From Candidatus Saccharimonadota bacterium (lineage in GTDB: Bacteria; Patescibacteriota; Saccharimonadia; Saccharimonadales; Saccharimonadaceae): 32,000 bases of DNA. Each line of letters begins with the position of its first letter. The first letter of the stretch is position 1. Below, one piece after another: positions 9,440-31,831 of this stretch. The stretch covers positions 30,001 to 62,000 of the forward strand of contig CP064995.1 in assembly GCA_016700015.1 (NCBI GenBank). The letters run 5' to 3'. The notes below the pieces were generated by a model, which was given only the letters and a program-made list of their open reading frames with translations, ran no database searches and had not been told where the DNA came from. The position numbers were made by a program, and so were the translations under genes.

Positions 9440-10186
9440 ATGGAAGTCCAGCTTGAAAAGAAAGAAGAGTTCAAAAAAGCACTGGCGTGCTATAGTCCAT
9501 CGCAAGATGCACGTGACACACTTGCCACAATGCCGCTTGTCATACTACTGAGTGTGACCGGTGGTGGACGTAACACAATCATTAATGAACTAGTGAAGAC
9601 TGGCCGCTACCACTATATTGTTTCTGATACGACGCGACCTGCGAAGGTACGAAACGGCAAGCTTGAGCAAGATGGCGTTGTGTACCATTTTCGCACTGAA
9701 GATGAGGTACTGGCGGATATTAAACAAGGGCTATACCTTGAAGCCGAGCTTATTCACGATCAGCAGGTGAGCGGTACAAGTGTTCGTGAGTTAAAACGTG
9801 CTCATGATAGTGGTAAGGTGCCAATCAATGAAGTTGATATTGGCGGCACCGATGCAATTGCGGATGTTAAACCTGACACCCTATTTCTTTTTATCGTGCC
9901 ACCGAGTTATACCGAGTGGATGCGGCGACTAAAATCCCGTGAAGATATGAGCGAGGAAGAACTGGAGAAGCGTCTCACAACCGCAGTGCGCATGTTACAC
10001 ACTGTACTTAGCAGTAAGCGGTTTGTATTTGTAGTCAACGATAGACTATCTGAGGTGGTAAAAACAGTAGACGATTACATCTTGGGTGAGCGGCATGACC
10101 TGCATGACGCCACCGCCAAAGCTGTTGCTTTGCGACTGTATCATCAAATTCTTGAACACTACCCTCATTTGGCGGCTACAGACTAG
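9440..10186 (+). CDS. Guanylate kinase family protein with a non-canonical P-loop
   Basis: Gmk blocks: SDTTRPAKV..G...GVVYHF, YLEAELIHDQQVSGTS, INEVDIGGTDAI, FIVPPSYTEWMRRLKSR. The P-loop reads SVTGGGRNT instead of GPSGxGKS/T. TATACT at 9428-9433 lies 6 nt before the ATG. Confidence 0.75.
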   Translation: MEVQLEKKEEFKKALACYSPSQDARDTLATMPLVILLSVTGGGRNTIINELVKTGRYHYIVSDTTRPAKVRNGKLEQDGVVYHFRTEDEVLADIKQGLYLEAELIHDQQVSGTSVRELKRAHDSGKVPINEVDIGGTDAIADVKPDTLFLFIVPPSYTEWMRRLKSREDMSEEELEKRLTTAVRMLHTVLSSKRFVFVVNDRLSEVVKTVDDYILGERHDLHDATAKAVALRLYHQILEHYPHLAATD

Positions 10187-13551: not shown

Positions 13552-13932
13552 GTGTGGGGACAAATTAATACGGCTGTTGACGCAGTGAAAAATGGCTTGG
13601 ATGCCCAAATTGCACTGGCAACGGCGGAGCAAAAAGAGCAGCTAGCTGATGCAAAAATTGCGCTCGCTGACATCAAGATAGCTATAGCTAAGCTAAAAGA
13701 AGAAAATGCCGCGCTAAAAAAGCGAAATGATTTAGCGAACAAAATTACGTCGAGCAGTAAGTGCTACTCGATGGATATCGGCAACGGGCAAAAGCGTGCG
13801 ATATGTACGAAATGCTGGGAGGACGACGGAAAGGCAATATCGCTTAATAACTTAGGAAACGGAGCAGAATGTCCTAAATGCAAGAACTGGTATGAGATAG
13901 ATGAAAATCAGTTCGAAAACCTAAAGGATTAG
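13552..13932 (+). CDS. Small coiled-coil protein with a C-terminal zinc ribbon (hypothetical)
   Basis: GTG start 9 nt after TAGGAG. The N-terminal ~65 aa are Ala/Lys/Glu-rich heptad-like (AKIALADIKIAIAKLKEENAALKKRN). C-terminal CTKC-x17-CPKC. No family recognised. Confidence 0.55.
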   Translation: MWGQINTAVDAVKNGLDAQIALATAEQKEQLADAKIALADIKIAIAKLKEENAALKKRNDLANKITSSSKCYSMDIGNGQKRAICTKCWEDDGKAISLNNLGNGAECPKCKNWYEIDENQFENLKD

Positions 13933-13982
13933 CGAGAGGGAGTAAGGCCTAACTATAAAGTGTTACTTTGCATGATCCGATT

Positions 13983-15107
13983 TCATGCGTGGTGATCACC
14001 GGGAAGAGTCAAGAACAACGCTGCCCATACCATACCAGGGTCGCTGCGGTAAAACGGCGCATAGTACCAGCTGCCGTCGCTGTTGACCAGCTCTGGGTAG
14101 TTGCCGTGGCGCTCGATAAGAGCGGCAAAGTTGTCGTACTGTTGCTGATACTCGGGCCGATCGTAGCGCTTAAGGAGATGCAGGTAAAAGGTTGCGTGCC
14201 AAGTCCAGATAGTTGTGCCGGTATAATTTGGCATCGCACGGTTGCCCATGCCAAAGCGAAACTTCCACACATGCGGTTGGTTGGTATAGCGTAGCGGCGC
14301 AAGTCGGTTGAGTTTTTGCGCGGTAATGTAGTTAAAGGTACGCGCGGCCTTTTCTGCATCGTCAATGACGCCAAGGAAAAAGGGCATCAGGGCACACTCC
14401 GAACTATAGGCACCATTCCATGTATCAGCATTGAAATAGTCACCGTTCCAGTACTGTCCGAGCAGCTCATCGCGGTAGCGCTCGGGTGGGAAAGGGAAAC
14501 CATCGAGTTTCAAAAGTTCCACACACTTCGCCATACGACCAACCAGTGCAATCGCATAGGCGCTGCGGTCATATACGACGGCATCGCGCATTTCAGCAAA
14601 ATGCACGTCGCGGATAAACCCAGAGCGTGGGTCGAGAAACATTTTGATGTAGCGTCGAAGTTGACGCTCGAGAAAGCTATGCTCGGCGTGATTAAGCGGA
14701 TAGTTACTGACGACGACACTATGCAGTAGCCATGGCAAGGCATCGATGCTCCGTGTCGCGGGTGCATTGAATGTATTGCCGGCGGAGTCGATACATAGTG
14801 TCACCGCACCGGAGCGGCGATAGTAGCGCAGTGCCCAGCGCAGCGTATGGTGAACTTTGTCGCGATGGCCAAGTCGGGTTAATGATTCTGCCACGGTGCC
14901 AAAGTCACGCATCCAAAAGAAATCGAAATGGCCAAGGCTCGTGCGGTAAAAATCACCTTCCCAAAGTTTATTCAACACTTGACGACACACCTGAGATGCA
15001 TCGCCTTCAAACCGTTCAATCGTCCCAAAATAGCGGTTGAAAACTTGCCGGTACAGCGCGCGCAGCGAACCGAGTACAGCCCCAACGGCATGAAAAAAAT
15101 GTTCCAT
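13983..15107 (-). CDS. Cytoplasmic (alpha/alpha)6-barrel glycoside-hydrolase-like protein (GDE_C/GH15/GH63-like; family uncertain)
   Basis: 374-aa ORF, Trp/Tyr/Phe-rich. FDFFWMRDFG motif and overall repeated-helix pattern resemble six-hairpin glycosidases. No signal peptide. Long antisense ORFs across it are shadows. Confidence 0.75.
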   Translation of the reverse strand: MEHFFHAVGAVLGSLRALYRQVFNRYFGTIERFEGDASQVCRQVLNKLWEGDFYRTSLGHFDFFWMRDFGTVAESLTRLGHRDKVHHTLRWALRYYRRSGAVTLCIDSAGNTFNAPATRSIDALPWLLHSVVVSNYPLNHAEHSFLERQLRRYIKMFLDPRSGFIRDVHFAEMRDAVVYDRSAYAIALVGRMAKCVELLKLDGFPFPPERYRDELLGQYWNGDYFNADTWNGAYSSECALMPFFLGVIDDAEKAARTFNYITAQKLNRLAPLRYTNQPHVWKFRFGMGNRAMPNYTGTTIWTWHATFYLHLLKRYDRPEYQQQYDNFAALIERHGNYPELVNSDGSWYYAPFYRSDPGMVWAALFLTLPGDHHA

Positions 15108-15156
15108 TGATTACCAGTATAGCGGTTACGATAAAGATCGACAAACTAGATGCGAA

Positions 15157-15972
15157 TTATGATTCTCGGAATGAAGCGAGGATACGTTTCATCTCAGCCT
15201 CATGCTTACCAAGGTTACTGGGTGAAGTCCAGGCACTAATAATGTAGTAGCCACGAGTCGTTTTAATATAGCGTTCATAGTAGGTATAGTTGTGAAGATC
15301 GTAGGCTGCAGTGATTTTGTAGTCAATTTTAGTGAGATTGTCTGGGTTGGCAACGGTTCCACTTGGGAGTAACGTGCGCGCAGAACCAGTAAAGCGTGTA
15401 TCGGTTTGGAAGGATTTGAACGATTGATCAGCATACGCTTCTATCGTGGTTCCCGTCGGGACATCTACTGTTTCTTGAAAATACACGATGACAGATGGGC
15501 TTCCTGAGGGTTCACTTTGAGCGAGTTTTGCATCAGTATATTCATCGCTAATATCTATATAGCTATTGGGGACAGAAAGTGTAATCCCATTCGCCGATAC
15601 ACTACGCTCAGCTGCTGATAAACCCGAATCACTGTTTGTTAGGGAGCTGGAGCCTGATGATGATTTTGGCTTGAAGTCATCTGGGTGAGCGATGGCATAG
15701 ATGATAAACGCTGTGGCTACAATAAATCCTAAAATCATGCCAATCAGGTTGAGAATCCAACCGACCCGAGAGAGAACAGGTGACACGCCGGCTTTTTTGG
15801 CTTTGCTCGCGCCAATTAGCCCTAGTACAAATCCAGGCAAGCTAAAAAACAGGAAAACACAGACGATGCTAGCGATGCCAAATCCATCAGTATATGAAGG
15901 GGGCAATACGGTAGGCTGAAGTGTTGGCGCAGCTTGCTCTGGTGCCGATATTGGGTGATGTGCTGTTGTCAT
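15157..15972 (-). CDS. DUF4190-like membrane protein with an extracytoplasmic C-terminal domain (hypothetical)
   Basis: Pro-rich N-terminus, two TM helices (GFGIASIVCVFLFFSLPGFVLGLIGASKAKKAG ... ILNLIGMILGFIVATAFIIYAIA), Ser-rich linker, beta-rich domain of about 160 aa. Confidence 0.75.
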   Translation of the reverse strand: MTTAHHPISAPEQAAPTLQPTVLPPSYTDGFGIASIVCVFLFFSLPGFVLGLIGASKAKKAGVSPVLSRVGWILNLIGMILGFIVATAFIIYAIAHPDDFKPKSSSGSSSLTNSDSGLSAAERSVSANGITLSVPNSYIDISDEYTDAKLAQSEPSGSPSVIVYFQETVDVPTGTTIEAYADQSFKSFQTDTRFTGSARTLLPSGTVANPDNLTKIDYKITAAYDLHNYTYYERYIKTTRGYYIISAWTSPSNLGKHEAEMKRILASFRES

Positions 15973-16025
15973 GATACCTATATTATGTATCTCAGAGTTC
16001 TTTGCCGCAATAGCTTTGTGATGAA

Positions 16026-19332: not shown

Positions 19333-19411
19333 GATTTTATCCAGATGTTATACTAAAGTAAGATGCAATCGATCTTATAAACATCAATAACACCAATAAC
19401 TTTTTGACACC

Positions 19412-20737
19412 ATGCACGAAACTCAGCAATCCTCACAGCGACTCGCTCTACTAAAACCCAATATTATTGCTGCGGTTGTACCATCGAATATGACCGAGCA
19501 AAAGCAGGCGTTTATGCTGGGTAAAGTACGGAATCCACGTCATAATTACTCAAAACTTGATCGAAACTATCGTAAGGGTTTGAGGGCAATAGTAGCGGTT
19601 GGTGAGCGCGCAATTTCCTCTCTTGGTGTCCGGCGTCCTCGTCTTGAAGCAATGTATGAAGATACCATTGAGGATTATGTCGAGACTAATGAATTGATGT
19701 ACTTCATGGATCAATATCGCAGAACAACTGATCCTGCGGCACGTCTTTTCTACCGCCAAGAGATTGTGCGACTCAACGCGGAGTTGTACGGTACGCCAAA
19801 ACTCGCAGACTACCATCACGTGCTAGCACACTATACAGCGGATATACCGGTAGGACGGTTACGAGGCAAGGGTGCGGCAGTTTACGCCGAGCTTGCTGGT
19901 AGTTTTTCGCTCCTAGAGAGCGTAGAACGGGCACCATCGTACGCACCGGACCCAAAAACGCTTGCCTGGATGGGTCGAGTGGTTACGGAGCTTTATGGCG
20001 GGATGCTTGCTCATGTCGAAGACAATCGGCAGTACGCACCGGTCGAACTGCAGCAACTATTTCGTACTGTGATTCACGAAGAATTTGGCGGTGAGATTGC
20101 CGAAGAATGGCGTGTCGATCTCGAACCCGCCGCCGCGATTACCGTCGATACAGTTAATAGACGAATAATTATACCGATTGATCGGCAGCCTGTAAGTAGT
20201 GAGAAGGCCAAAGACCTGGTGGTGCATGAAATAGGTGTCCATATGCTGCGGTCTGTAAATGGCTATGAAACCGATATTCCACTGCTTGCGACCGGGCTTA
20301 GCCGATATGCTGATTCAGAGGAAGGTCTCGCCGTTATTATTGAACAAGCGCGTAAGGGGAAGTTTGTTGAGATGGGTCATGCAAGTTACTTGGCGGCATC
20401 TCTTGCCTATTTTGAGGGCAAAGACTTCCGCGGCACCTTTGAAGTAATGTGGCGTGTCTTAGCGCTAAAACGCATGGGTGACGGGCCGGACTTGACGGAA
20501 GAAATGATAGTAAAGGCAAAAAATACAGCTTATGCACTCTGTATGCGTACGTTTCGAGGTACCGACGACATCCCTTGGTTTAAAGATCTGCAATACTATA
20601 ATGGGGCGATAGCCGTTTGGAAACATCTGGATGCAATTTGTGGCGATACCGATAAGTTTCAGCTGATGATGATGGGTAAAACAAGGATTGATGATCCCGC
20701 GCAGGATCGCATCGTGCTAGAAGCAGGGTCGAACTAG
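19412..20737 (+). CDS. DUF1704 / QEGLA-motif family putative metallo-carboxypeptidase (MATCAP-like)
   Basis: HEIGVH (HExxxH), followed about 30 aa later by SEEGLAVIIEQ (QEGLA-like). N-terminal LKPNII...EQKQAF....NPRHNY block. 441 aa. No SD; start uncertain. Confidence 0.8.
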   Translation: MHETQQSSQRLALLKPNIIAAVVPSNMTEQKQAFMLGKVRNPRHNYSKLDRNYRKGLRAIVAVGERAISSLGVRRPRLEAMYEDTIEDYVETNELMYFMDQYRRTTDPAARLFYRQEIVRLNAELYGTPKLADYHHVLAHYTADIPVGRLRGKGAAVYAELAGSFSLLESVERAPSYAPDPKTLAWMGRVVTELYGGMLAHVEDNRQYAPVELQQLFRTVIHEEFGGEIAEEWRVDLEPAAAITVDTVNRRIIIPIDRQPVSSEKAKDLVVHEIGVHMLRSVNGYETDIPLLATGLSRYADSEEGLAVIIEQARKGKFVEMGHASYLAASLAYFEGKDFRGTFEVMWRVLALKRMGDGPDLTEEMIVKAKNTAYALCMRTFRGTDDIPWFKDLQYYNGAIAVWKHLDAICGDTDKFQLMMMGKTRIDDPAQDRIVLEAGSN

Positions 20738-20751
20738 CGTACAATAGCACT

Positions 20752-21261
20752 ATGATTGTTCGACAAGCAACTGAGGACGATATCGATGACCTGTTCCGTC
20801 TTTCGTGCCTCGTTCATCACCAGCCACCGTATGACATGCTTATCCCTGCGCACGAGCGAGAACGATTTTTGGCCGCCTTTCAGCTCGGCTCTTCGTTTGA
20901 GCAGACATTCAAAACAAAGCTGATGCGACTGATCAGCTCGCCAAATGGTCACGTATTTATTGCCGACGTTGATGGGGAGATAGCCGGATATCGGGCAGCG
21001 GAAGTTGGTCCAAATTCACTTGAGCTGCACGGATTATTCGTTGATGAGCGTTTCCGCGGTCACGGGATTGGCAAGGCACTTTTTACAGCCCCGATCCATC
21101 TTGCACCGCGTGGAGGTGTAATACGGCTTACGGTACTTGCTGGTAATACGGTAGCGCAGGCACTGTACGAATCACTCGGGTTTAAGGTGGTGGGTTCTGC
21201 CGAAAAGACCTTCTACGGCGCAGAGCAACTGAACATGCAAAAACAAAGCACAACCAATTGA
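20752..21261 (+). CDS. GNAT family N-acetyltransferase
   Basis: Acetyl-CoA motif A: LHGLFVDERFRGHGIGKALF. C-terminal AQALYESLGFKVVG. 169 aa. TACAAT at 20740-20745 lies 6 nt before the ATG. Confidence 0.85.
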   Translation: MIVRQATEDDIDDLFRLSCLVHHQPPYDMLIPAHERERFLAAFQLGSSFEQTFKTKLMRLISSPNGHVFIADVDGEIAGYRAAEVGPNSLELHGLFVDERFRGHGIGKALFTAPIHLAPRGGVIRLTVLAGNTVAQALYESLGFKVVGSAEKTFYGAEQLNMQKQSTTN

Positions 21262-21350
21262 CAAAACAAGTATAAAATGATACAATTTTACCAATAGTAA
21301 TAAACGACCCTATTGTTTAGGGTAATTGGCTGCGCCAAAGGAATAACTGC

Positions 21351-22346
21351 ATGCTTGCTCATGATGATCCCGCTGCGACTTATCGGCTCCTTGAGAGAGA
21401 ATTTACCGCACGCGGATACACCACGCGTGTATTTTACTTGGGTGCAAGCGAGGTGTTTGAAGCGGTGAGTCCAAAAGGTCGACGCTGGGTCACGCCGATT
21501 GCACACATGAGCTATCCAATGCAGTCAGCCTTCACCAAAGAAGTATCGATTCACAAGGATCTGGCGTACGAACTAATGAAAAATGTCGGCGTACCCGTGC
21601 CGTTTACCCAGGTGATTCGTGCTGGTGTCGAATTAAGCCTCAACGAAGCGGCGACACTACTTCAGCAGCAGCCACGGCTTATCGTAAAGCCAGCTGATAG
21701 TTCACTGTCACGAGGTCTGACACTTGGTATAACTGATGCGCCAGCGCTTGTCGAAGCGATTACCTTAGCTAGGCAGTTCGCCAGGAATGGTGATGTTATC
21801 GTTCAGCAACAGGTGTCCGGCGAAGAGCTACGGTTTGTATATAGTGACGGAAACATCGTAGCGGCCTTGCTACGCGAAACGGCCAAACTTACCGGCGATG
21901 GTGTGCATAGTATTCAGCAACTTCTCGACAAAGAAAATACTCAGCGCGCCGAGATAAAAGATTCGCTCGTGACTTACCCCCAGTTGAGCGATGACCTGAT
22001 ACAACCAGGAATTGATTATATGAAGGTACCGGCAAATGGTGAAACTATCGAGCTCAGTTGTTCGACGATGATCCGAGGCGGAGCATCGATTTACAACGTG
22101 ATTGCGACTATTGACCCAAGCTACTGCGACCTAGCGCGGCGGGCTGCCGAGGCATTAGGCACAGGCTTTATAGTCATCGATATGATGATTAAAAATTACA
22201 AGCAGCCGTTTGATGGAACCAATGCATTTTTCAATGAATTCAATACTGCGCCCGTACTCAAACTTTGCTATAGCTGCCGCGACGGCAACCAGCTTGACAT
22301 CGTACCGCTGCTCGTAGATGCTATAGACAAGAGGATTCACCTATGA
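21351..22346 (+). CDS. ATP-grasp ligase, cyanophycin-synthetase-G-domain-like
   Basis: DLAYELMKNVGVPVP, LIVKPADSSLSRGLTLGI, VIVQQQVSGEELRFVY, RETAKLTGDGVHSIQQLLDKEN and FIVIDMM...NEFNTAPVL follow the ATP-grasp block order. The stop overlaps the next start (ATGA). Confidence 0.8.
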   Translation: MLAHDDPAATYRLLEREFTARGYTTRVFYLGASEVFEAVSPKGRRWVTPIAHMSYPMQSAFTKEVSIHKDLAYELMKNVGVPVPFTQVIRAGVELSLNEAATLLQQQPRLIVKPADSSLSRGLTLGITDAPALVEAITLARQFARNGDVIVQQQVSGEELRFVYSDGNIVAALLRETAKLTGDGVHSIQQLLDKENTQRAEIKDSLVTYPQLSDDLIQPGIDYMKVPANGETIELSCSTMIRGGASIYNVIATIDPSYCDLARRAAEALGTGFIVIDMMIKNYKQPFDGTNAFFNEFNTAPVLKLCYSCRDGNQLDIVPLLVDAIDKRIHL

Positions 22347-22777
22347 CAAAACAACGCACTATTGGCTGTCTTGAACGTGTAGATTTTCCCGCATTTGGGA
22401 TAGTTGGCTCATGGGCGAAAGTCGATACCGGTGCGTATTCCGGTGCGCTGCACTGTACCAATATTAAAGTTGTTCGGCGCACCGCAAATGGTGAGCGGGT
22501 TCTAAAATTTTCGCCACTCGGCCAGGCTCCACAGGAAACAACGGAATTTATGAGCACCTATGTTCGCTCGGCCACCGGCCATCGTGTACGCAGGCATGTG
22601 ATCGACACCCAGATCTGCATCGGCGGCAAAGAATATCCTGTGCGCATTGGACTGTCCGACCGTTCAGATATGAAGCGTCCAGTCCTGCTCGGACGGCGAT
22701 TCTTACGTGAGAATAGCATGCTTGTCGATGTATGCATTAACCAAGAATTTGATGACGAAGGAGAAGGCACAAAATGA
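22343..22777 (+). CDS. RimB-like retropepsin-fold protease (PF05618, 'ATP-dependent zinc protease' family)
   Basis: IGCLERVDFPAFGI..WAKVDTGAYSGALHC ... PVLLGRRFL pattern of the RimK-associated protease family. ATGA overlaps with both neighbours. Confidence 0.75.
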   Translation: MTKQRTIGCLERVDFPAFGIVGSWAKVDTGAYSGALHCTNIKVVRRTANGERVLKFSPLGQAPQETTEFMSTYVRSATGHRVRRHVIDTQICIGGKEYPVRIGLSDRSDMKRPVLLGRRFLRENSMLVDVCINQEFDDEGEGTK

Positions 22778-23685
22778 AATTAGCGATCCTCAGCAATGGT
22801 ACCGCGAATTATTCTACTAAACGACTCAAAGAAGTCGCTGTGGCTCGTGGCCATGAAGTGAAAGTCATCAAGTACCGCGAATGTTACGCGAGTATTGAAA
22901 AAAATAATCCGACGGTAAGCTACCGTGGCGAAGACCTTGCCAGGTACGATGCGGTGATCCCGCGTATTGCCAGCCACATGACCAAATATGGCACGGCTAT
23001 CGTTCGCCAAATGGAAATGCAGGGCGTATACACCGTCAGCAGCTCAATCGCAATTAATCGCTCGCGCGATAAGTTGCGCAGTCTGCAGCTACTTGCAAAA
23101 GCTGGTGTCGGCATTCCTAAAACGGTATTTAGTCGTAACTCGACTGACATTGATGACCTTATCGAAAAACTTGGCGGTACACCAGTGATTATCAAGCTAG
23201 CGCGAGGTACTCACGGTAATGGTGTAGTGCTAGCCGAAAGCAAAAAAGCCGCTAAATCAGTACTGCAGGCATTTTACCTTTCAAATGAAGAAGGCACCAA
23301 CGTGCTGCTACAGGAATTTATAAAGGAATCGGCTGGTACCGACATCCGTGTGTTTGTGGTGGGGGGTAGGGTAGTTGCTAGTATGAAGCGCCAGAGCCTC
23401 GACGATGATTTTCGTAGCAACTTGCATAAAGGTGGCGAAGGTGCCACGGTTAAGCTAACTGAAGAAGAGCGCAAAATGGCCATTAAAGCAGCCAAAGCGA
23501 TGGGGCTCAATATTGCCGGTGTCGACCTGATGCGTAGTGACCGCGGCCCACTAATTCTGGAAGTCAATGCCAGTCCTGGGTTCGGTATCGAAAAAGTAAC
23601 AGGACGTGACGTGGCAACTCCAATCATTGAATATGTTGAACAAAACGCCAAGCGTGGTCACAAAAAAGACAAAGTCGGTGCCTAG
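22774..23685 (+). CDS. rimK: Ribosomal protein S6--L-glutamate ligase RimK (ATP-grasp)
   Basis: MKLAILS....YSTKRL.E.A..RGHEV start, SIAINRSRDKLRSLQLLAKAGVGIPKT, PVIIKLARGTHGNGVVLAE, DIRVFVVGGRVVASMKRQ, ILEVNASPG. Confidence 0.92.
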   Translation: MKLAILSNGTANYSTKRLKEVAVARGHEVKVIKYRECYASIEKNNPTVSYRGEDLARYDAVIPRIASHMTKYGTAIVRQMEMQGVYTVSSSIAINRSRDKLRSLQLLAKAGVGIPKTVFSRNSTDIDDLIEKLGGTPVIIKLARGTHGNGVVLAESKKAAKSVLQAFYLSNEEGTNVLLQEFIKESAGTDIRVFVVGGRVVASMKRQSLDDDFRSNLHKGGEGATVKLTEEERKMAIKAAKAMGLNIAGVDLMRSDRGPLILEVNASPGFGIEKVTGRDVATPIIEYVEQNAKRGHKKDKVGA

Positions 23686-23700
23686 TAGTATACTGTAGGC

Positions 23701-24183
23701 ATGACCTTTTTGATCATGCTCGGTATCTATCTGGCTATACTTTTTGTTGTCGGATTTTTTAGCCGCAAAAGTATGGGCGTGCCGGCTCTGGCACTTGCCG
23801 CCGGTGCGGTGCTTGCTAAGCTGTGGACCGATAGCCTAACACCACTGATCGCTGGTACCGGCGTGATTATTGTACGTCCGCCGCTCAGTAGCATTGTTGC
23901 CATAGCCCTTACGCTCATACCGGCACTTATTCTCATGATTCGTGCGCCCAAAGCTACCCACCATCACCATAGTTGGTACTCGAGCCTCTTGTTTGCTGTG
24001 CTTGCAGCCATGCTCACCTACGGCGCCTTTGCCAACGCCGTGGTACTCGACGAAGCAAGCAAGCAGTATGTAGTGCAGCTGCTAGCCTACGACAAATACA
24101 TCATCACGGCCGGTATAGTGCTGGCTTTGTTTGACATCATGTTCTATAAAAAACCACTACCACGCGATCATCACAAGAAGTAA
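23701..24183 (+). CDS. Small integral membrane protein (about 4 TM, hypothetical)
   Basis: Hydrophobic segments throughout, KATHHHHSW loop. TATACT at 23689-23694 lies 6 nt before the ATG. A terminator follows. Confidence 0.7.
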   Translation: MTFLIMLGIYLAILFVVGFFSRKSMGVPALALAAGAVLAKLWTDSLTPLIAGTGVIIVRPPLSSIVAIALTLIPALILMIRAPKATHHHHSWYSSLLFAVLAAMLTYGAFANAVVLDEASKQYVVQLLAYDKYIITAGIVLALFDIMFYKKPLPRDHHKK

Positions 24184-24189
24184 GTATTG

Positions 24190-24231
24190 CCAAGTAAAAC
24201 GTCCATCTGAAAGGATGGACGTTTTACTTGG
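24190..24231. terminator. Bidirectional terminator hairpin between the membrane-protein gene and tRNA-Lys
   Basis: 18-bp perfect stem CCAAGTAAAACGTCCATC / GATGGACGTTTTACTTGG with a 6-nt loop. T-runs are present on both strands. Confidence 0.75.
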
Positions 24232-24305
24232 AGGGCCCACCGAGGCTTGAACTCGGGACACCCTGCTTAAAAGGCAGGTGCTCTAACCGGCTGAGCTATG
24301 GGCCC
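24229..24305 (-). tRNA. tRNA-Lys (anticodon UUU), CCA encoded
   Basis: Reverse complement: GGGCCCA TA GCTC AGCCGGTTA GAGC A CCTGC CTTTTAA GCAGG GTGTC CCGAG TTCAAGC CTCGG TGGGCCC T CCA. It forms a full cloverleaf with a 7-bp acceptor stem. 77 nt. Confidence 0.95.
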
Positions 24306-24352
24306 GTATTTACGGGAACTGGGTAACGAAAGGTACATCATGTGGTGTATAG

Positions 24353-24417
24353 CTGCCTTAAAAGGCAGGTGCTCGACTATTGATCAGGCTGAGCTATGGG
24401 CCCGCGCTAACGGGAAT
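24353..24417 (-). pseudogene. Partial tandem copy of the tRNA-Lys 5' half plus its 5' flank (pseudo-tRNA)
   Basis: Reverse complement: ...TTCCCGTTAGCGC GGGCCCATAGCTCAG-CCTGATCAATAGTC-GAGCACCTGCCTTTTAAGGCAG. The acceptor 5' strand, D stem and anticodon stem-loop are copied, with a D loop 7 nt longer (16 nt versus 9). No T arm or 3' acceptor strand follows. Confidence 0.55.
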
Positions 24418-29443: not shown

Positions 29444-31831
29444 ATGAAAAAGCATCAACCGGCTCGGATGAACCGTTATAGCAATCTGGCCAGCAAGTCG
29501 AAACCTCACAGTTCATCGCGTCGTCACCGTACTCGCCAACCAAGAATGATTGCATGGTTTGTGGAGCTAAGTCTGAAGCGCAAGGTATTGGTGTTGGCGA
29601 TGCCAATATTACTTTTTCTGATTGTCACGCCCGTTATCACCTATCTACTGCTTGCCAATGACATTCGTGACCAAGAGCGCTTGATGAACCGTAATAATAC
29701 CGGACTCGTATTGCTCGATAAAGACGGTAAATCATTTTACAGCATAGGTAAGGCCGAACATCGCACGCTCGTACAGCTCGACCAAATGGCTCCTGACGCA
29801 AAGAACGCCCTGATAGCAACCGAAGATAAGGATTTTTATAAGCACGCTGGCTTTAACTTAGGCAGTATTATCCGTTCATTATGGACTAATCTCGTTTTGC
29901 GACGCGCAGCCTATGGCGGCTCGACAATTACACAGCAACTAGTGAAGAATACCTTGCTGACTGATGACAAAAACGTCTTGCGCAAGTATCAGGAACTGGT
30001 AATGGCAATCGCAATTGAGCAGAATTATACAAAAGACCAGATACTCATGATGTATCTAAACTCAGTCTATTATGGGGAAAACGCCTTTGGGATTGAAGAA
30101 GCGGCCAAAACCTACTACGGAAAAACACCGAAGGATCTGACATTGGCTGAAAGTGCAATGCTTATCGGCATACTCCCCGCCCCGAGCGCCTACTCGCCAA
30201 TTAGTGGCAATGCGGACTATGCTAAGCAGCGTCAAGAAAAAGTGTTAACCAGAATGGTGGCTGAAAAATATATTACCGAAGATCAAAAAGCAGCTGCACT
30301 CGCTGAACAACTGACGTACGCAAAATCGGCCGATACACCTGACTCAATTGCACCGCATTTTGTTGAAATGGTGATTGGTGAGCTGAGCGAAAAGTATGGC
30401 TATGAGCAGGTAATGCGCTCAGGGTTTCAAGTGACCACAACGCTTGATACTAATGCGCAGGGCATCCTCAACCAAAGTGTTGCCGGTCAACTTGGCTATG
30501 TGAACCGCAATGGTGGGAGCAACATCAGCGCAGTAATTATCGACCCAAAGTCTGGCGAAATTAGGAGCCTTGTTGGTAGTGCCGACTACAACAATGACAA
30601 ATGGGGCAAGGTGAATATGGTAACGACTGCAAGGCAGCCGGGCAGTAGCTTCAAGCCAATCTACTACTCGCAGGCGCTCGCCGACGGTGTTATTACGCCG
30701 GCTACAATCTACCATGATGAGCTAACCGACTTTGGTGGTGGCTACAAACCAATGAACGCTAGTCGTCAGTGGTATGGCGATGTCACTGTTCGCAAGGCAC
30801 TAAACTGGTCACTCAACATACCGAGTATCAAAGTGATGCAGGATTACACGATTGATAAATCAGTGGCTGGCGCGAAGAAGCTCGGCATACAGCTCGATCA
30901 AAATCGTGATCACAACTTGACTCTTGCACTTGGCTCCGAAGAAGTGCCGCTACTTACTATGACCAATGCCTATGCCGCGTTTGCCAACCAGGGTCAGCAG
31001 TATAAGACCGCTGTCATTAAGAAAGTTGACGATAAGTTTGGGAAGCGTATCTTGATGAACAGCCAGACAAGGAACCAGGCAATTAACAAAGAAGGCGCGT
31101 ACCTTATATCGAATATTTTGTCTGATAATCAAGCGAGGTCGGGTATTTTTGGAAGCTCATTAAATATACCGGGACACACAGCTGCAGTAAAAACGGGCAC
31201 TACCAACGATAGTCGTGACGCCTGGACGATCGGATACACGCCCGACTATGTAATTGGAGTTTGGGTTGGCAATAACGACAATTCACCGATGAACAACGGT
31301 GGTTCTGGAATGGCGGGGCCAGTGTGGCGTAACACACTTATCAAGTTGCTTGTCGGTGTGCCAGATAAAAAGTTTGATATGCCTAGCGGCATAGTTCAGC
31401 GAAATATCTGTACGGCAAATGGCGGCCTGGCAAGCAAAACTGGCAGTGGAACGTACAGTGAGTATTTTATGGCCGGTGCGCTACCGACAAAATCCTGTAC
31501 ACCAGATCCGGTGATTATCACAGTGTGTAATCTTGATACGAAGAAGACTGAGTCAATTGACGAAGAGACGTTTGATTCCGTACGTTACTCAAAAAATCTT
31601 GACGACTGTAAACCAGTTACTATCGCTGTTTGCGATCTTGCCACTGGCCAGATAAAGATAATAGAAGAGATTGACTATGACACTGACCTACAATCGAAAG
31701 ATACTGGAGACTGCGTTGCTCATGTCAAGGCATGTGACACGACAAACGGCACTGTTGTTTGGGTGAGGACAGCCGAGTTTGTGCTACCTCGCTATACCAA
31801 TGACATTGAAAATTGTGTCGCATCGCCTTAA
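29444..31831 (+). CDS. Class A penicillin-binding protein (PBP1A-type glycosyltransferase/transpeptidase) with a C-terminal triple-repeat extension
   Basis: GT51 motifs ATEDKDFYKHAGF and GGSTITQQLVKN. Transpeptidase motifs SSFKP (SxxK), SLN (SxN) and KTGTT. N-terminal basic tail plus TM. Three Cys-bracketed repeats of about 35 aa at the C-terminus. Confidence 0.95.
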   Translation: MKKHQPARMNRYSNLASKSKPHSSSRRHRTRQPRMIAWFVELSLKRKVLVLAMPILLFLIVTPVITYLLLANDIRDQERLMNRNNTGLVLLDKDGKSFYSIGKAEHRTLVQLDQMAPDAKNALIATEDKDFYKHAGFNLGSIIRSLWTNLVLRRAAYGGSTITQQLVKNTLLTDDKNVLRKYQELVMAIAIEQNYTKDQILMMYLNSVYYGENAFGIEEAAKTYYGKTPKDLTLAESAMLIGILPAPSAYSPISGNADYAKQRQEKVLTRMVAEKYITEDQKAAALAEQLTYAKSADTPDSIAPHFVEMVIGELSEKYGYEQVMRSGFQVTTTLDTNAQGILNQSVAGQLGYVNRNGGSNISAVIIDPKSGEIRSLVGSADYNNDKWGKVNMVTTARQPGSSFKPIYYSQALADGVITPATIYHDELTDFGGGYKPMNASRQWYGDVTVRKALNWSLNIPSIKVMQDYTIDKSVAGAKKLGIQLDQNRDHNLTLALGSEEVPLLTMTNAYAAFANQGQQYKTAVIKKVDDKFGKRILMNSQTRNQAINKEGAYLISNILSDNQARSGIFGSSLNIPGHTAAVKTGTTNDSRDAWTIGYTPDYVIGVWVGNNDNSPMNNGGSGMAGPVWRNTLIKLLVGVPDKKFDMPSGIVQRNICTANGGLASKTGSGTYSEYFMAGALPTKSCTPDPVIITVCNLDTKKTESIDEETFDSVRYSKNLDDCKPVTIAVCDLATGQIKIIEEIDYDTDLQSKDTGDCVAHVKACDTTNGTVVWVRTAEFVLPRYTNDIENCVASP

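Follow-up and report, generated by a model that had tools for sequence, protein, structure and literature searches.

RimK and RimB make up the only well-studied bacterial system of reversible protein polyglutamylation. RimK extends ribosomal protein S6 at its C-terminal end with alpha-glutamates, and is also able to make free poly-alpha-glutamate, whereas RimB trims the glutamate tails made by RimK, cuts runs of at least 5-6 contiguous glutamates and stimulates RimK (PMC11957791). RimB-RimK hybrids are known from other bacteria (PMC11957791). A second module, RloABC of Pseudomonas aeruginosa, pairs a polyglutamate-cleaving retropepsin with an ATP-grasp ligase (PMC12239564). In eukaryotes, the MATCAP family (TMCP1/MATCAP and TMCP2) consists of carboxypeptidases with an HExxxH motif of unusual spacing, which also shorten polyglutamate chains (PMC10499314). 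Here we describe a gene cluster that brings relatives of these proteins together. It lies in a stretch of 32,000 nucleotides (nt), hereafter the window, which covers positions 30,001 to 62,000 of contig CP064995.1 of a Candidatus Saccharimonadota bacterium (GCA_016700015.1). The conserved core of the cluster is a trio of a MATCAP-like carboxypeptidase, a RimB-like protease and RimK. We propose, with a probability of roughly 0.55, that the locus forms a writer/eraser module acting on C-terminal chains of alpha-glutamate, most likely on S6.

The cluster consists of the following genes (lengths in amino acids, aa):
19412-20737, plus strand: MATCAP/DUF1704 (QEGLA-type) gluzincin metallocarboxypeptidase homologue, 441 aa, from a PF08014 match
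20752-21261, plus strand: GNAT acetyltransferase, 169 aa, from a PF00583 match
21351-22346, plus strand: AG2, a stand-alone ATP-grasp protein of the cyanophycin-synthetase G-domain/GshF type, 331 aa, from an NCBIfam match
22343-22777, plus strand: RimB-like retropepsin aspartic endopeptidase, 144 aa, from a PF05618 match
22774-23685, plus strand: RimK alpha-L-glutamate ligase, 303 aa, from the NCBIfam equivalog NF007764

The open reading frames (ORFs) lie at the positions listed, and families were assigned by Pfam and NCBIfam profile searches using curated cutoffs. The E-values of the five assignments span 1e-17 to 1e-104, and the family placements are therefore not due to chance. Start and stop codons overlap by 4 nt (ATGA) at 22343, between AG2 and the RimB-like gene, and at 22774, between the RimB-like gene and rimK. 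A preliminary description of the window, made from the sequence alone, had listed the five genes, both overlaps, a membrane protein gene behind them and a terminator, and all of these are confirmed, the six genes at the positions it gave. Its assignment of 19412-20737 to DUF1704 and of 22343-22777 to the RimB-like family, as well as its naming of the GNAT, the CphA-like ATP-grasp protein and RimK, agrees with the profile searches. The trimming of RimK tails by RimB, which it had given as background, is in line with the literature (PMC11957791). Its identification of DUF1704 as the family of the carboxypeptidase MATCAP agrees with the present Pfam name and with the description of MATCAP-family enzymes as HExxxH carboxypeptidases (PMC10499314). 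It had further placed QEGLA/DUF1704 genes beside alpha-L-glutamate-ligase-like ATP-grasp genes, an arrangement that is seen in Photobacterium and in two loci of the survey described below (L079 and L080). A QEGLA-ATP-grasp neighbourhood is also noted in family annotations. The writer/eraser interpretation which it put forward is supported as a computational hypothesis.

To survey the neighbourhood, a MATCAP alignment was run against a single genome from each GTDB species; the 79 loci obtained (L numbers below) were annotated using tblastn and locally built hidden Markov models (HMMs). The survey was anchored on MATCAP, so its counts describe MATCAP-bearing loci; 62 of the Saccharibacteria loci were evaluable. 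In 59 of these 62 species loci the MATCAP gene is directly followed by those for RimB and RimK, so that the co-localisation in related genomes which the preliminary description had named as a check is strongly conserved. A second, CphA-G-like ATP-grasp gene is present in 16 Saccharibacteria loci, 11 of them with and five without the GNAT gene. Relatives whose MATCAP is 76% and 50% identical to that of the window retain all five genes and the membrane protein. Relatives with 37% MATCAP identity, from oral and gut Saccharibacteria, have MATCAP-RimB-RimK alone, within the same dnaJ...comEC synteny. The order is MATCAP-GNAT-AG2-RimB-RimK in the lineage of the window and GNAT-MATCAP-AG2-RimB-RimK in most other lineages. 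The conserved unit is the MATCAP-RimB-RimK trio; the pair of AG2 and GNAT is a lineage-specific accessory that about one species in four possesses. The five-gene system of the preliminary description thus stands as far as the trio is concerned, while the other two members are accessory.

The trio is not confined to one genomic position. In one lineage (L052-L061, L066, L068, L070-L072) it lies behind leuS, nusB, a NUDIX gene and rnc, flanked by RNase III and phosphorylase genes, and dnaJ, the membrane protein gene and comEC are not nearby. Related combinations occur outside the Saccharibacteria, in other phyla of the CPR (Patescibacteria) and in one archaeal genome. An Uhrbacteria locus (L082, 7226-10690) has an ATP-grasp_4 protein, RimK and MATCAP in a row, that is, two ligases and one carboxypeptidase. 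In an archaeal metagenome-assembled genome (MAG; L084, 6522-10789) a RimB-like gene, a 319-aa gene without assignment, rimK, a DUF72 gene and MATCAP follow each other; this MATCAP scores 261 bits against the QEGLA model. In Andersenbacteria (L078) a divergent RimK-like gene adjoins MATCAP. In Kaiserbacteria (L080, 904-4447) and Paceibacterota (L079, 9404-12896) MATCAP/QEGLA is followed by an RloB-like seven-transmembrane (7TM) protein (PF14402) and then by an RloC-like (TIGR02291) ATP-grasp domain fused to a retropepsin. Judged by its domains, this arrangement amounts to the Rlo system of Pseudomonas in compact, fused form, plus a carboxypeptidase. Clostridia-type MATCAP homologues (L067, L074, L075) stand alone.

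The 441-aa protein matches PF08014 (now named MATCAP, formerly DUF1704) over residues 203-428 with 76 bits against a cutoff of 27. It contains HEIGVH at residues 272-277 and EEGLA at 303-307, and H272, E273, H277, E303 and E304 are invariant in an alignment of 41 relatives. A profile built from 23 relatives found human MATCAP (7z6s, 7z5g) with E = 1e-3 in three colinear stretches. In these, HEIGVH pairs with HQIGTH, from the E281Q mutant used for 7z6s, and SEEGL pairs with TEEGL. The AlphaFold2 (AF2) model has a predicted local distance difference test score (pLDDT) of 92. The homologues found are mostly metagenome proteins, and the named ones are from Saccharibacteria.

The 144-aa protein reaches 62.2 bits against PF05618, where the cutoff is 27, and the residues D28-T29-G30-A31 are invariant in all 73 aligned RimB-like homologues. 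D28 is the counterpart of D31 in the DTG motif of Pseudomonas fluorescens RimB, which is catalytic (PMC11957791). Reading of the N-terminus (MTKQRTIGCLERVDF) revealed no hydrophobic leader. The protease would accordingly be cytoplasmic and lack a signal peptide, unlike the secreted RloA paralogues. We propose it as an endo-acting eraser and as the partner of RimK. The 303-aa protein passes the S6-glutamate ligase equivalog NF007764 with 349.2 bits (cutoff 331) over residues 1-296, and contains the pre-ATP-grasp domain PF18030 (120 bits) and the RimK ATP-grasp domain PF08443 (206 bits). Nearly all of 90 aligned sequences share the nucleotide- and Mg-binding residues K141, R192, D251, E263 and N265, and RimK identity among Saccharibacteria loci is 70-98%. 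We propose that this RimK alpha-L-glutamate ligase is the writer.

AG2 aligns with positions 204-469, the G domain, of the NCBIfam cyanophycin-synthetase model (110 bits, E 1e-31), and its 331 aa consist of the G domain alone, without the N domain and the Mur-ligase-like M domain of CphA. A function as cyanophycin synthetase was ruled out, the N and M domains being absent and the score falling well short of the full-length cutoff of 850 bits. AG2 also matches the ATP-grasp halves of the Ngg and GshAB models. The nearest PDB sequences are GshAB (3ln6), CphA1 (7lgn) and several further CphA1 and CphA2 entries. Foldseek with the AF2 model (pLDDT 91) retrieved CphA1 (7wae) at a template modelling (TM) score of 0.74-0.75 and E = 3e-21, followed by GshF and CphA2, with D-Ala-D-Ala ligases and LysX far behind. 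K113, R161, D277, E296 and N298 never vary in the alignment, and E159 is almost invariant. The relatives of AG2 all extend a peptide at its C-terminal carboxylate by an amino acid, and by analogy AG2 would perform the same chemistry as RimK. We propose this stand-alone, cyanophycin-synthetase G-domain-like ATP-grasp protein as a second writer.

The AG2 family is compact, with about 120 clusters at 50% identity and E below 1e-30 among 1.84 billion representatives, and all homologues with a source name are from Saccharibacteria. A metagenome scan with the single AG2 sequence returned at least one locus. The second ATP-grasps of other lineages are of the same kind, with scores of 183-261 bits against cyanophycin synthetase. 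AG2::RimB fusions of 470-509 aa with PF05618 at the C-terminus make up at least 12 protein clusters. The context of two of these is known, one (P0317) as dnaJ-MATCAP-AG2::RimB-RimK and one (P0320) as dnaJ-(952 aa)-GNAT-AG2::RimB-RimK, and further fusions are present in loci L038, L044, L046, L049 and L088. The fusions, which come from several lineages, tie AG2 to the protease and not to an independent pathway. Separately, giant proteins of 700-2400 aa carry two or three AG2/CphA-G-like stretches (P0423, P0445, P0450, P0457, P0475 and others).

The 169-aa protein matches PF00583 (Acetyltransf_1) with 62 bits (cutoff 20.7). Its acetyl-CoA motif RGHGIG is intact, with G105 and G107 invariant in the alignment, and its closest neighbours in the PDB are small-molecule acetyltransferases of various kinds. 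Its top NCBIfam match is RimI, the S18-alanine N-acetyltransferase (TIGR01575), with 47.7 bits, below the cutoff of 86.4; by these scores it is a generic GNAT and not a curated RimI. S18 is the ribosomal partner of S6, and the weak similarity to RimI provides a lead towards a possible GNAT-S18 connection. The GNAT gene occurs in 11 of 16 loci with the second ATP-grasp and in none of 43 loci without it (Fisher's exact p = 1.6e-8), upstream or downstream of MATCAP depending on the lineage. Because the GNAT is limited to second-ATP-grasp loci, and because of the ATP-grasp::RimB fusions, membership of AG2 and GNAT in the module is supported, and we propose the GNAT as an accessory component.

These observations can be combined into a tentative mechanism. 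The families, their intact catalytic motifs, the translational coupling, a linkage that is both conserved and transposable, and the fusions are its observed basis; from these we infer how each step works chemically, that S6 is the target and what parts AG2 and GNAT play. RimK would write the tail by ATP-driven addition of glutamate. A dimer of the RimB-like retropepsin, probably bound to RimK, would remove glutamate runs from inside the chain and leave short tails uncut. The MATCAP-like zinc carboxypeptidase would trim C-terminal residues singly, and so either determine how long short tails are or recycle released oligoglutamate. AG2 might add a further residue, possibly other than glutamate, or prime the tail, and the GNAT would accompany AG2 in this lineage.

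The S6 sequences available for comparison were the 120 best matches (P0121-P0240) to the S6 of locus L040, from another, Microsaccharimonas-like sub-lineage of Saccharibacteria, in which three species (L042, L050, L051) carry the trio. Among these best 120, 81 end in -E (58 in -EE and 23 in a single -E) and 39 have other endings, 18 of which are -EE followed by one N or A. Endings vary within this one sub-lineage and include -KEEE, -KVEE, -KEQE, -TEEN, -SEAN, -KEEA and -KQDS. The S6 of L040 itself ends in -KEEE and that of L015 in -SESNE. The data are compatible with S6 as a RimK substrate. The tails ending in -EE[N/A] offer a lead, in that a carboxypeptidase would need to remove the last residue before RimK, which requires an exposed Glu-Glu, could act. 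In L040 and L015 a MATCAP gene without RimB/RimK lies 4-9 kb from rpsF. This proximity was set aside as coincidence, since it is absent from the related contigs L091 and L092. L092 encodes a 468-aa protein with an HEFTH motif (14582-15988) beside ychF, in the vicinity of the rpsF operon. Neither Pfam nor the MATCAP HMM matches this protein, which may be an unrelated metalloprotease.

Several results weigh against the writer/eraser reading. The 144-aa protein scores 63 bits against the NCBIfam RimB equivalog (NF052261), far below the cutoff of 200, and is by this measure RimB-like rather than a curated RimB. Likewise, the MATCAP-like protein reaches 64.3 bits against the TIGR02421 QEGLA equivalog, where the cutoff is 338.65, and by this profile belongs to a subfamily distinct from TIGR02421. 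Foldseek of its model against the PDB gave weak gluzincin matches (E about 0.1), and MATCAP was not retrieved. Loci L083, L088 and L089 have no MATCAP. Several oral-type MAGs (L036, L043, L062, L066, L069, L073, L081) have 2-4 ORFs in place of one intact MATCAP gene, through either gene decay or assembly error. Beside these split genes, L083 retains a 57-aa C-terminal MATCAP remnant (10001-10171) between GNAT and AG2. The S6 sample is from a different sub-lineage than the window, and one third of the 120 proteins lack a terminal glutamate. Finally, the support is wholly computational, and going by the precedent of Pseudomonas RimK and RimB no protein target is required.

This last point leads to the alternative that fares best, a possible though tentative one, in which the module would build up and break down a free polymer, either poly-alpha-glutamate or acidic oligopeptides of mixed composition, and so buffer glutamate, nitrogen or osmolarity. 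RimK, with or without AG2, would then polymerise, the RimB-like protease would cut, the MATCAP-like protein would free single amino acids and the GNAT could cap the N-terminus. In Pseudomonas, RimB stimulates the synthesis of free poly-alpha-L-glutamate by RimK and the glutamate pool is depleted (PMC11957791). The Rlo proteases, which are homologous, cut polyglutamate and are required when cells face hypo-osmotic stress; a free peptide may be what they act on naturally (PMC12239564). Furthermore, low salinity strongly induces a QEGLA gene, the ATP-grasp gene adjoining it and rimK in Photobacterium, and the closest relatives of AG2 synthesise either cyanophycin, which is a storage polymer, or the small peptide glutathione. 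The S6 proteins without terminal glutamate are also consistent with a free polymer. However, the RimK of the window passes the cutoff of the S6-ligase equivalog, -EE or -EEE is the ending of many S6 proteins from Saccharibacteria, and the window encodes neither an exporter nor a transglutaminase-7TM partner. The free-polymer and protein-tail readings are compatible with each other, as Pseudomonas has both.

Within the protein-tail reading, a more specific and rather unlikely version assigns AG2 the role of capping the S6 glutamate tail with a residue other than glutamate. Aspartate is the candidate because of the analogy with the cyanophycin-synthetase G domain. Such a cap would block RimK and RimB, and the MATCAP-like protein would remove it. 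If true, this cycle would correspond in bacteria to the tyrosination and detyrosination of tubulin, and would place the origin of part of the 'tubulin code' toolkit in the ribosome-modifying systems of ultra-small prokaryotes.

It is unlikely that GNAT and AG2 form a separate pathway for an N-acetylated small peptide, a split Ngg or one resembling the synthesis of N-acetyl-aspartyl-glutamate, that landed in the rim cluster. AG2 does match the ATP-grasp half of TIGR03103 (Ngg) over positions 285-511 with 100 bits, and the model's GNAT half has a weak match in the GNAT (15.6 bits, E = 0.0045), but both are far below the Ngg cutoff of 569. Although GNAT and the second ATP-grasp co-occur, and mammalian RimK-like enzymes produce N-acetyl-aspartyl-glutamate, five AG2-bearing loci are without GNAT and MATCAP stands between GNAT and AG2 in most lineages. 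The AG2::RimB fusions, counted above in protein clusters and in several loci, and the ATGA overlap of AG2 with the RimB-like gene in the window also argue against two unrelated units. That the genes are neighbours merely through a frozen Saccharibacteria gene order, without shared function, is very improbable: the order hrcA-grpE-dnaK-dnaJ ... comEC-yebC-ruvC is indeed conserved across the same range of genomes, and the 160-aa membrane protein is a conserved neighbour lacking other evidence of linkage, but the trio stays intact after relocation, in four other lineages of phylum rank MATCAP is paired with retropepsins and with ligases of the RimK or RloC type, genes are fused and translationally coupled, and GNAT and AG2 shift position yet remain inside the cluster, so that relocation and the linkage outside Saccharibacteria together make frozen synteny unlikely.

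The remaining features in and around the cluster are:
21258-21286, plus strand: promoter-like site in the spacer between GNAT and AG2, from a consensus scan
23701-24183, plus strand: multi-pass membrane protein, 160 aa, no family match
24190-24231, no strand assigned: perfect 19-bp hairpin, likely a bidirectional terminator, from folding against shuffled sequences
24229-24305, minus strand: tRNA-Lys gene, from Rfam

The promoter-like site reads TTGACA-17-TACAAT with an upstream TG and has 11 of 12 matches to the consensus, the consensus match being its sole basis. The coupled AG2-RimB-RimK block may therefore own a separate promoter, and the cluster may be made up of two transcription units, MATCAP-GNAT followed by AG2-RimB-RimK with the membrane protein. 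The spacer between this site and the start of AG2 (21287-21350) contains a small inverted repeat, ACCCTATTGTTTAGGGT (21307-21323), which could form a 5'-leader hairpin. The membrane protein has no Pfam, NCBIfam or PADLOC family match. It is kept 3' of RimK together with the dnaJ...comEC synteny and is absent where the trio is relocated, and is probably a syntenic neighbour outside the module. Behind it, the hairpin has a folding free energy (dG) of -31.4 kcal/mol, which corresponds to z = -9.7; 200 shuffled sequences included no equally good fold. It lies back to back with the tRNA-Lys gene, and is likely a bidirectional terminator that ends the cluster and is shared with this gene.

By gene content the window is housekeeping DNA. 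Its first part carries dinB, rhodanese, tilS, ftsH, murJ, lepA, gmk, hrcA, grpE and dnaK, and its later part FKBP, FAD-oxidase, dnaJ, the cluster, tRNA-Lys, comEC, yebC, an LTD protein, ruvC and PBP1. The cluster is located directly 3' of hrcA-grpE-dnaK-dnaJ, with no terminator predicted in the 79-nt gap, and this position behind heat-shock genes hints at stress-linked expression. A 795-aa ORF (29444-31831) was considered as FtsK, which is upstream of rpsF in other Saccharibacteria, and ruled out; it encodes PBP1. The Rfam scan of the window region returned tRNA as its sole match, and PADLOC found no defence-system match among the proteins searched.

A few further observations concern the flanks. 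Three ORFs of 126, 374 and 271 aa between dnaK and FKBP (13552-15972) have no Pfam family. Some Saccharibacteria lineages carry, between dnaJ and the cluster, an inserted protein of 950-1050 aa that matches neither Pfam nor NCBIfam (L003, 4787-7939; L004, 4027-7179; L089, 3388-6246). On the minus strand, the 5' half of the neighbouring tRNA-Lys(UUU) gene recurs as a partial copy at 24350-24403; the acceptor 5' arm and the anticodon stem-loop are identical, the D-arm has a 7-nt insertion and the 3' half is missing. This spot is variable among relatives: L001 has a 140-aa ORF there and L003 a NADAR gene. The partial copy could be the scar of an insertion or excision.

RimK/RimB and RloABC have been described before; what is new here is the carboxypeptidase partner, the second ligase and the GNAT. 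A literature search, with subscription journals outside its reach, found no account of this cluster. The papers on RimB (PMC11957791) and Rlo (PMC12239564) are both silent on a carboxypeptidase, a GNAT or a second ligase as partner. The regular association of RimK/RimB with a carboxypeptidase from the family of the human tubulin detyrosinase/deglutamylase MATCAP, in Saccharibacteria and other ultra-small prokaryotes, suggests a missing exo-acting eraser for RimK tails and gives the large bacterial DUF1704/QEGLA family a testable function. Saccharibacteria with the cluster include human oral and gut lineages, and loci L022 and L045 carry the trio within the genus Nanosynbacter. Since a genome of about 1 Mb retains three to five genes for it, control of such tails would appear to be important to these episymbionts.

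Compared with the Pseudomonas RimK/RimB system (RimABK; PMC4741518, PMC7343187, PMC11957791), the locus has the same cytoplasmic RimK directly after a coupled DTG retropepsin, and ligase-protease fusions occur in both, as RimBK hybrids there and as AG2::RimB in Saccharibacteria. Unlike RimABK, the Saccharibacteria cluster lacks the EAL phosphodiesterase RimA and has a MATCAP-family metallocarboxypeptidase as its constant third gene. The lineage of the window has a CphA-G-type ligase and a GNAT besides, in a host Saccharibacterium with a genome of the small size given above. The pairing of retropepsin and ATP-grasp ligase is shared with RloABC, and an RloABC-type module (QEGLA TIGR02421 / TIGR02291 / 7TM-inactive-transglutaminase) adjoins MATCAP in L080 and L079. 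Unlike in RloABC, the protease of the window has, by reading of its sequence, no signal peptide and the ligase is a true RimK, not RloC; an RloB-type 7TM protein (PF14402, NF052267) has no match in the window, the 160-aa membrane protein included. AG2 is closest by sequence and predicted fold to the G domain of CphA1 and the C-terminal ATP-grasp of GshF, which add an amino acid to a peptide C-terminal carboxylate, but unlike these enzymes it has no CphA N and M domains and no GshA domain.

The eukaryotic enzymes MATCAP/TMCP1 and TMCP2 share with the carboxypeptidase of the cluster the PF08014 domain, the HExxxH motif and the downstream EEGLA-type glutamate. They trim C-terminal residues and oppose the TTL/TTLL ATP-grasp ligases, which add Glu (or Tyr) to an acidic tail (PMC10499314). 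Outside the motifs, the sequence similarity to human MATCAP is marginal. Unlike the tubulin-tail system, the bacterial one has no tubulin, so its substrate must differ, and RimK is not a TTLL orthologue. The cluster is a prokaryotic parallel to the eukaryotic logic of ligase versus carboxypeptidase on tubulin tails, and the two trimming systems may share an origin.

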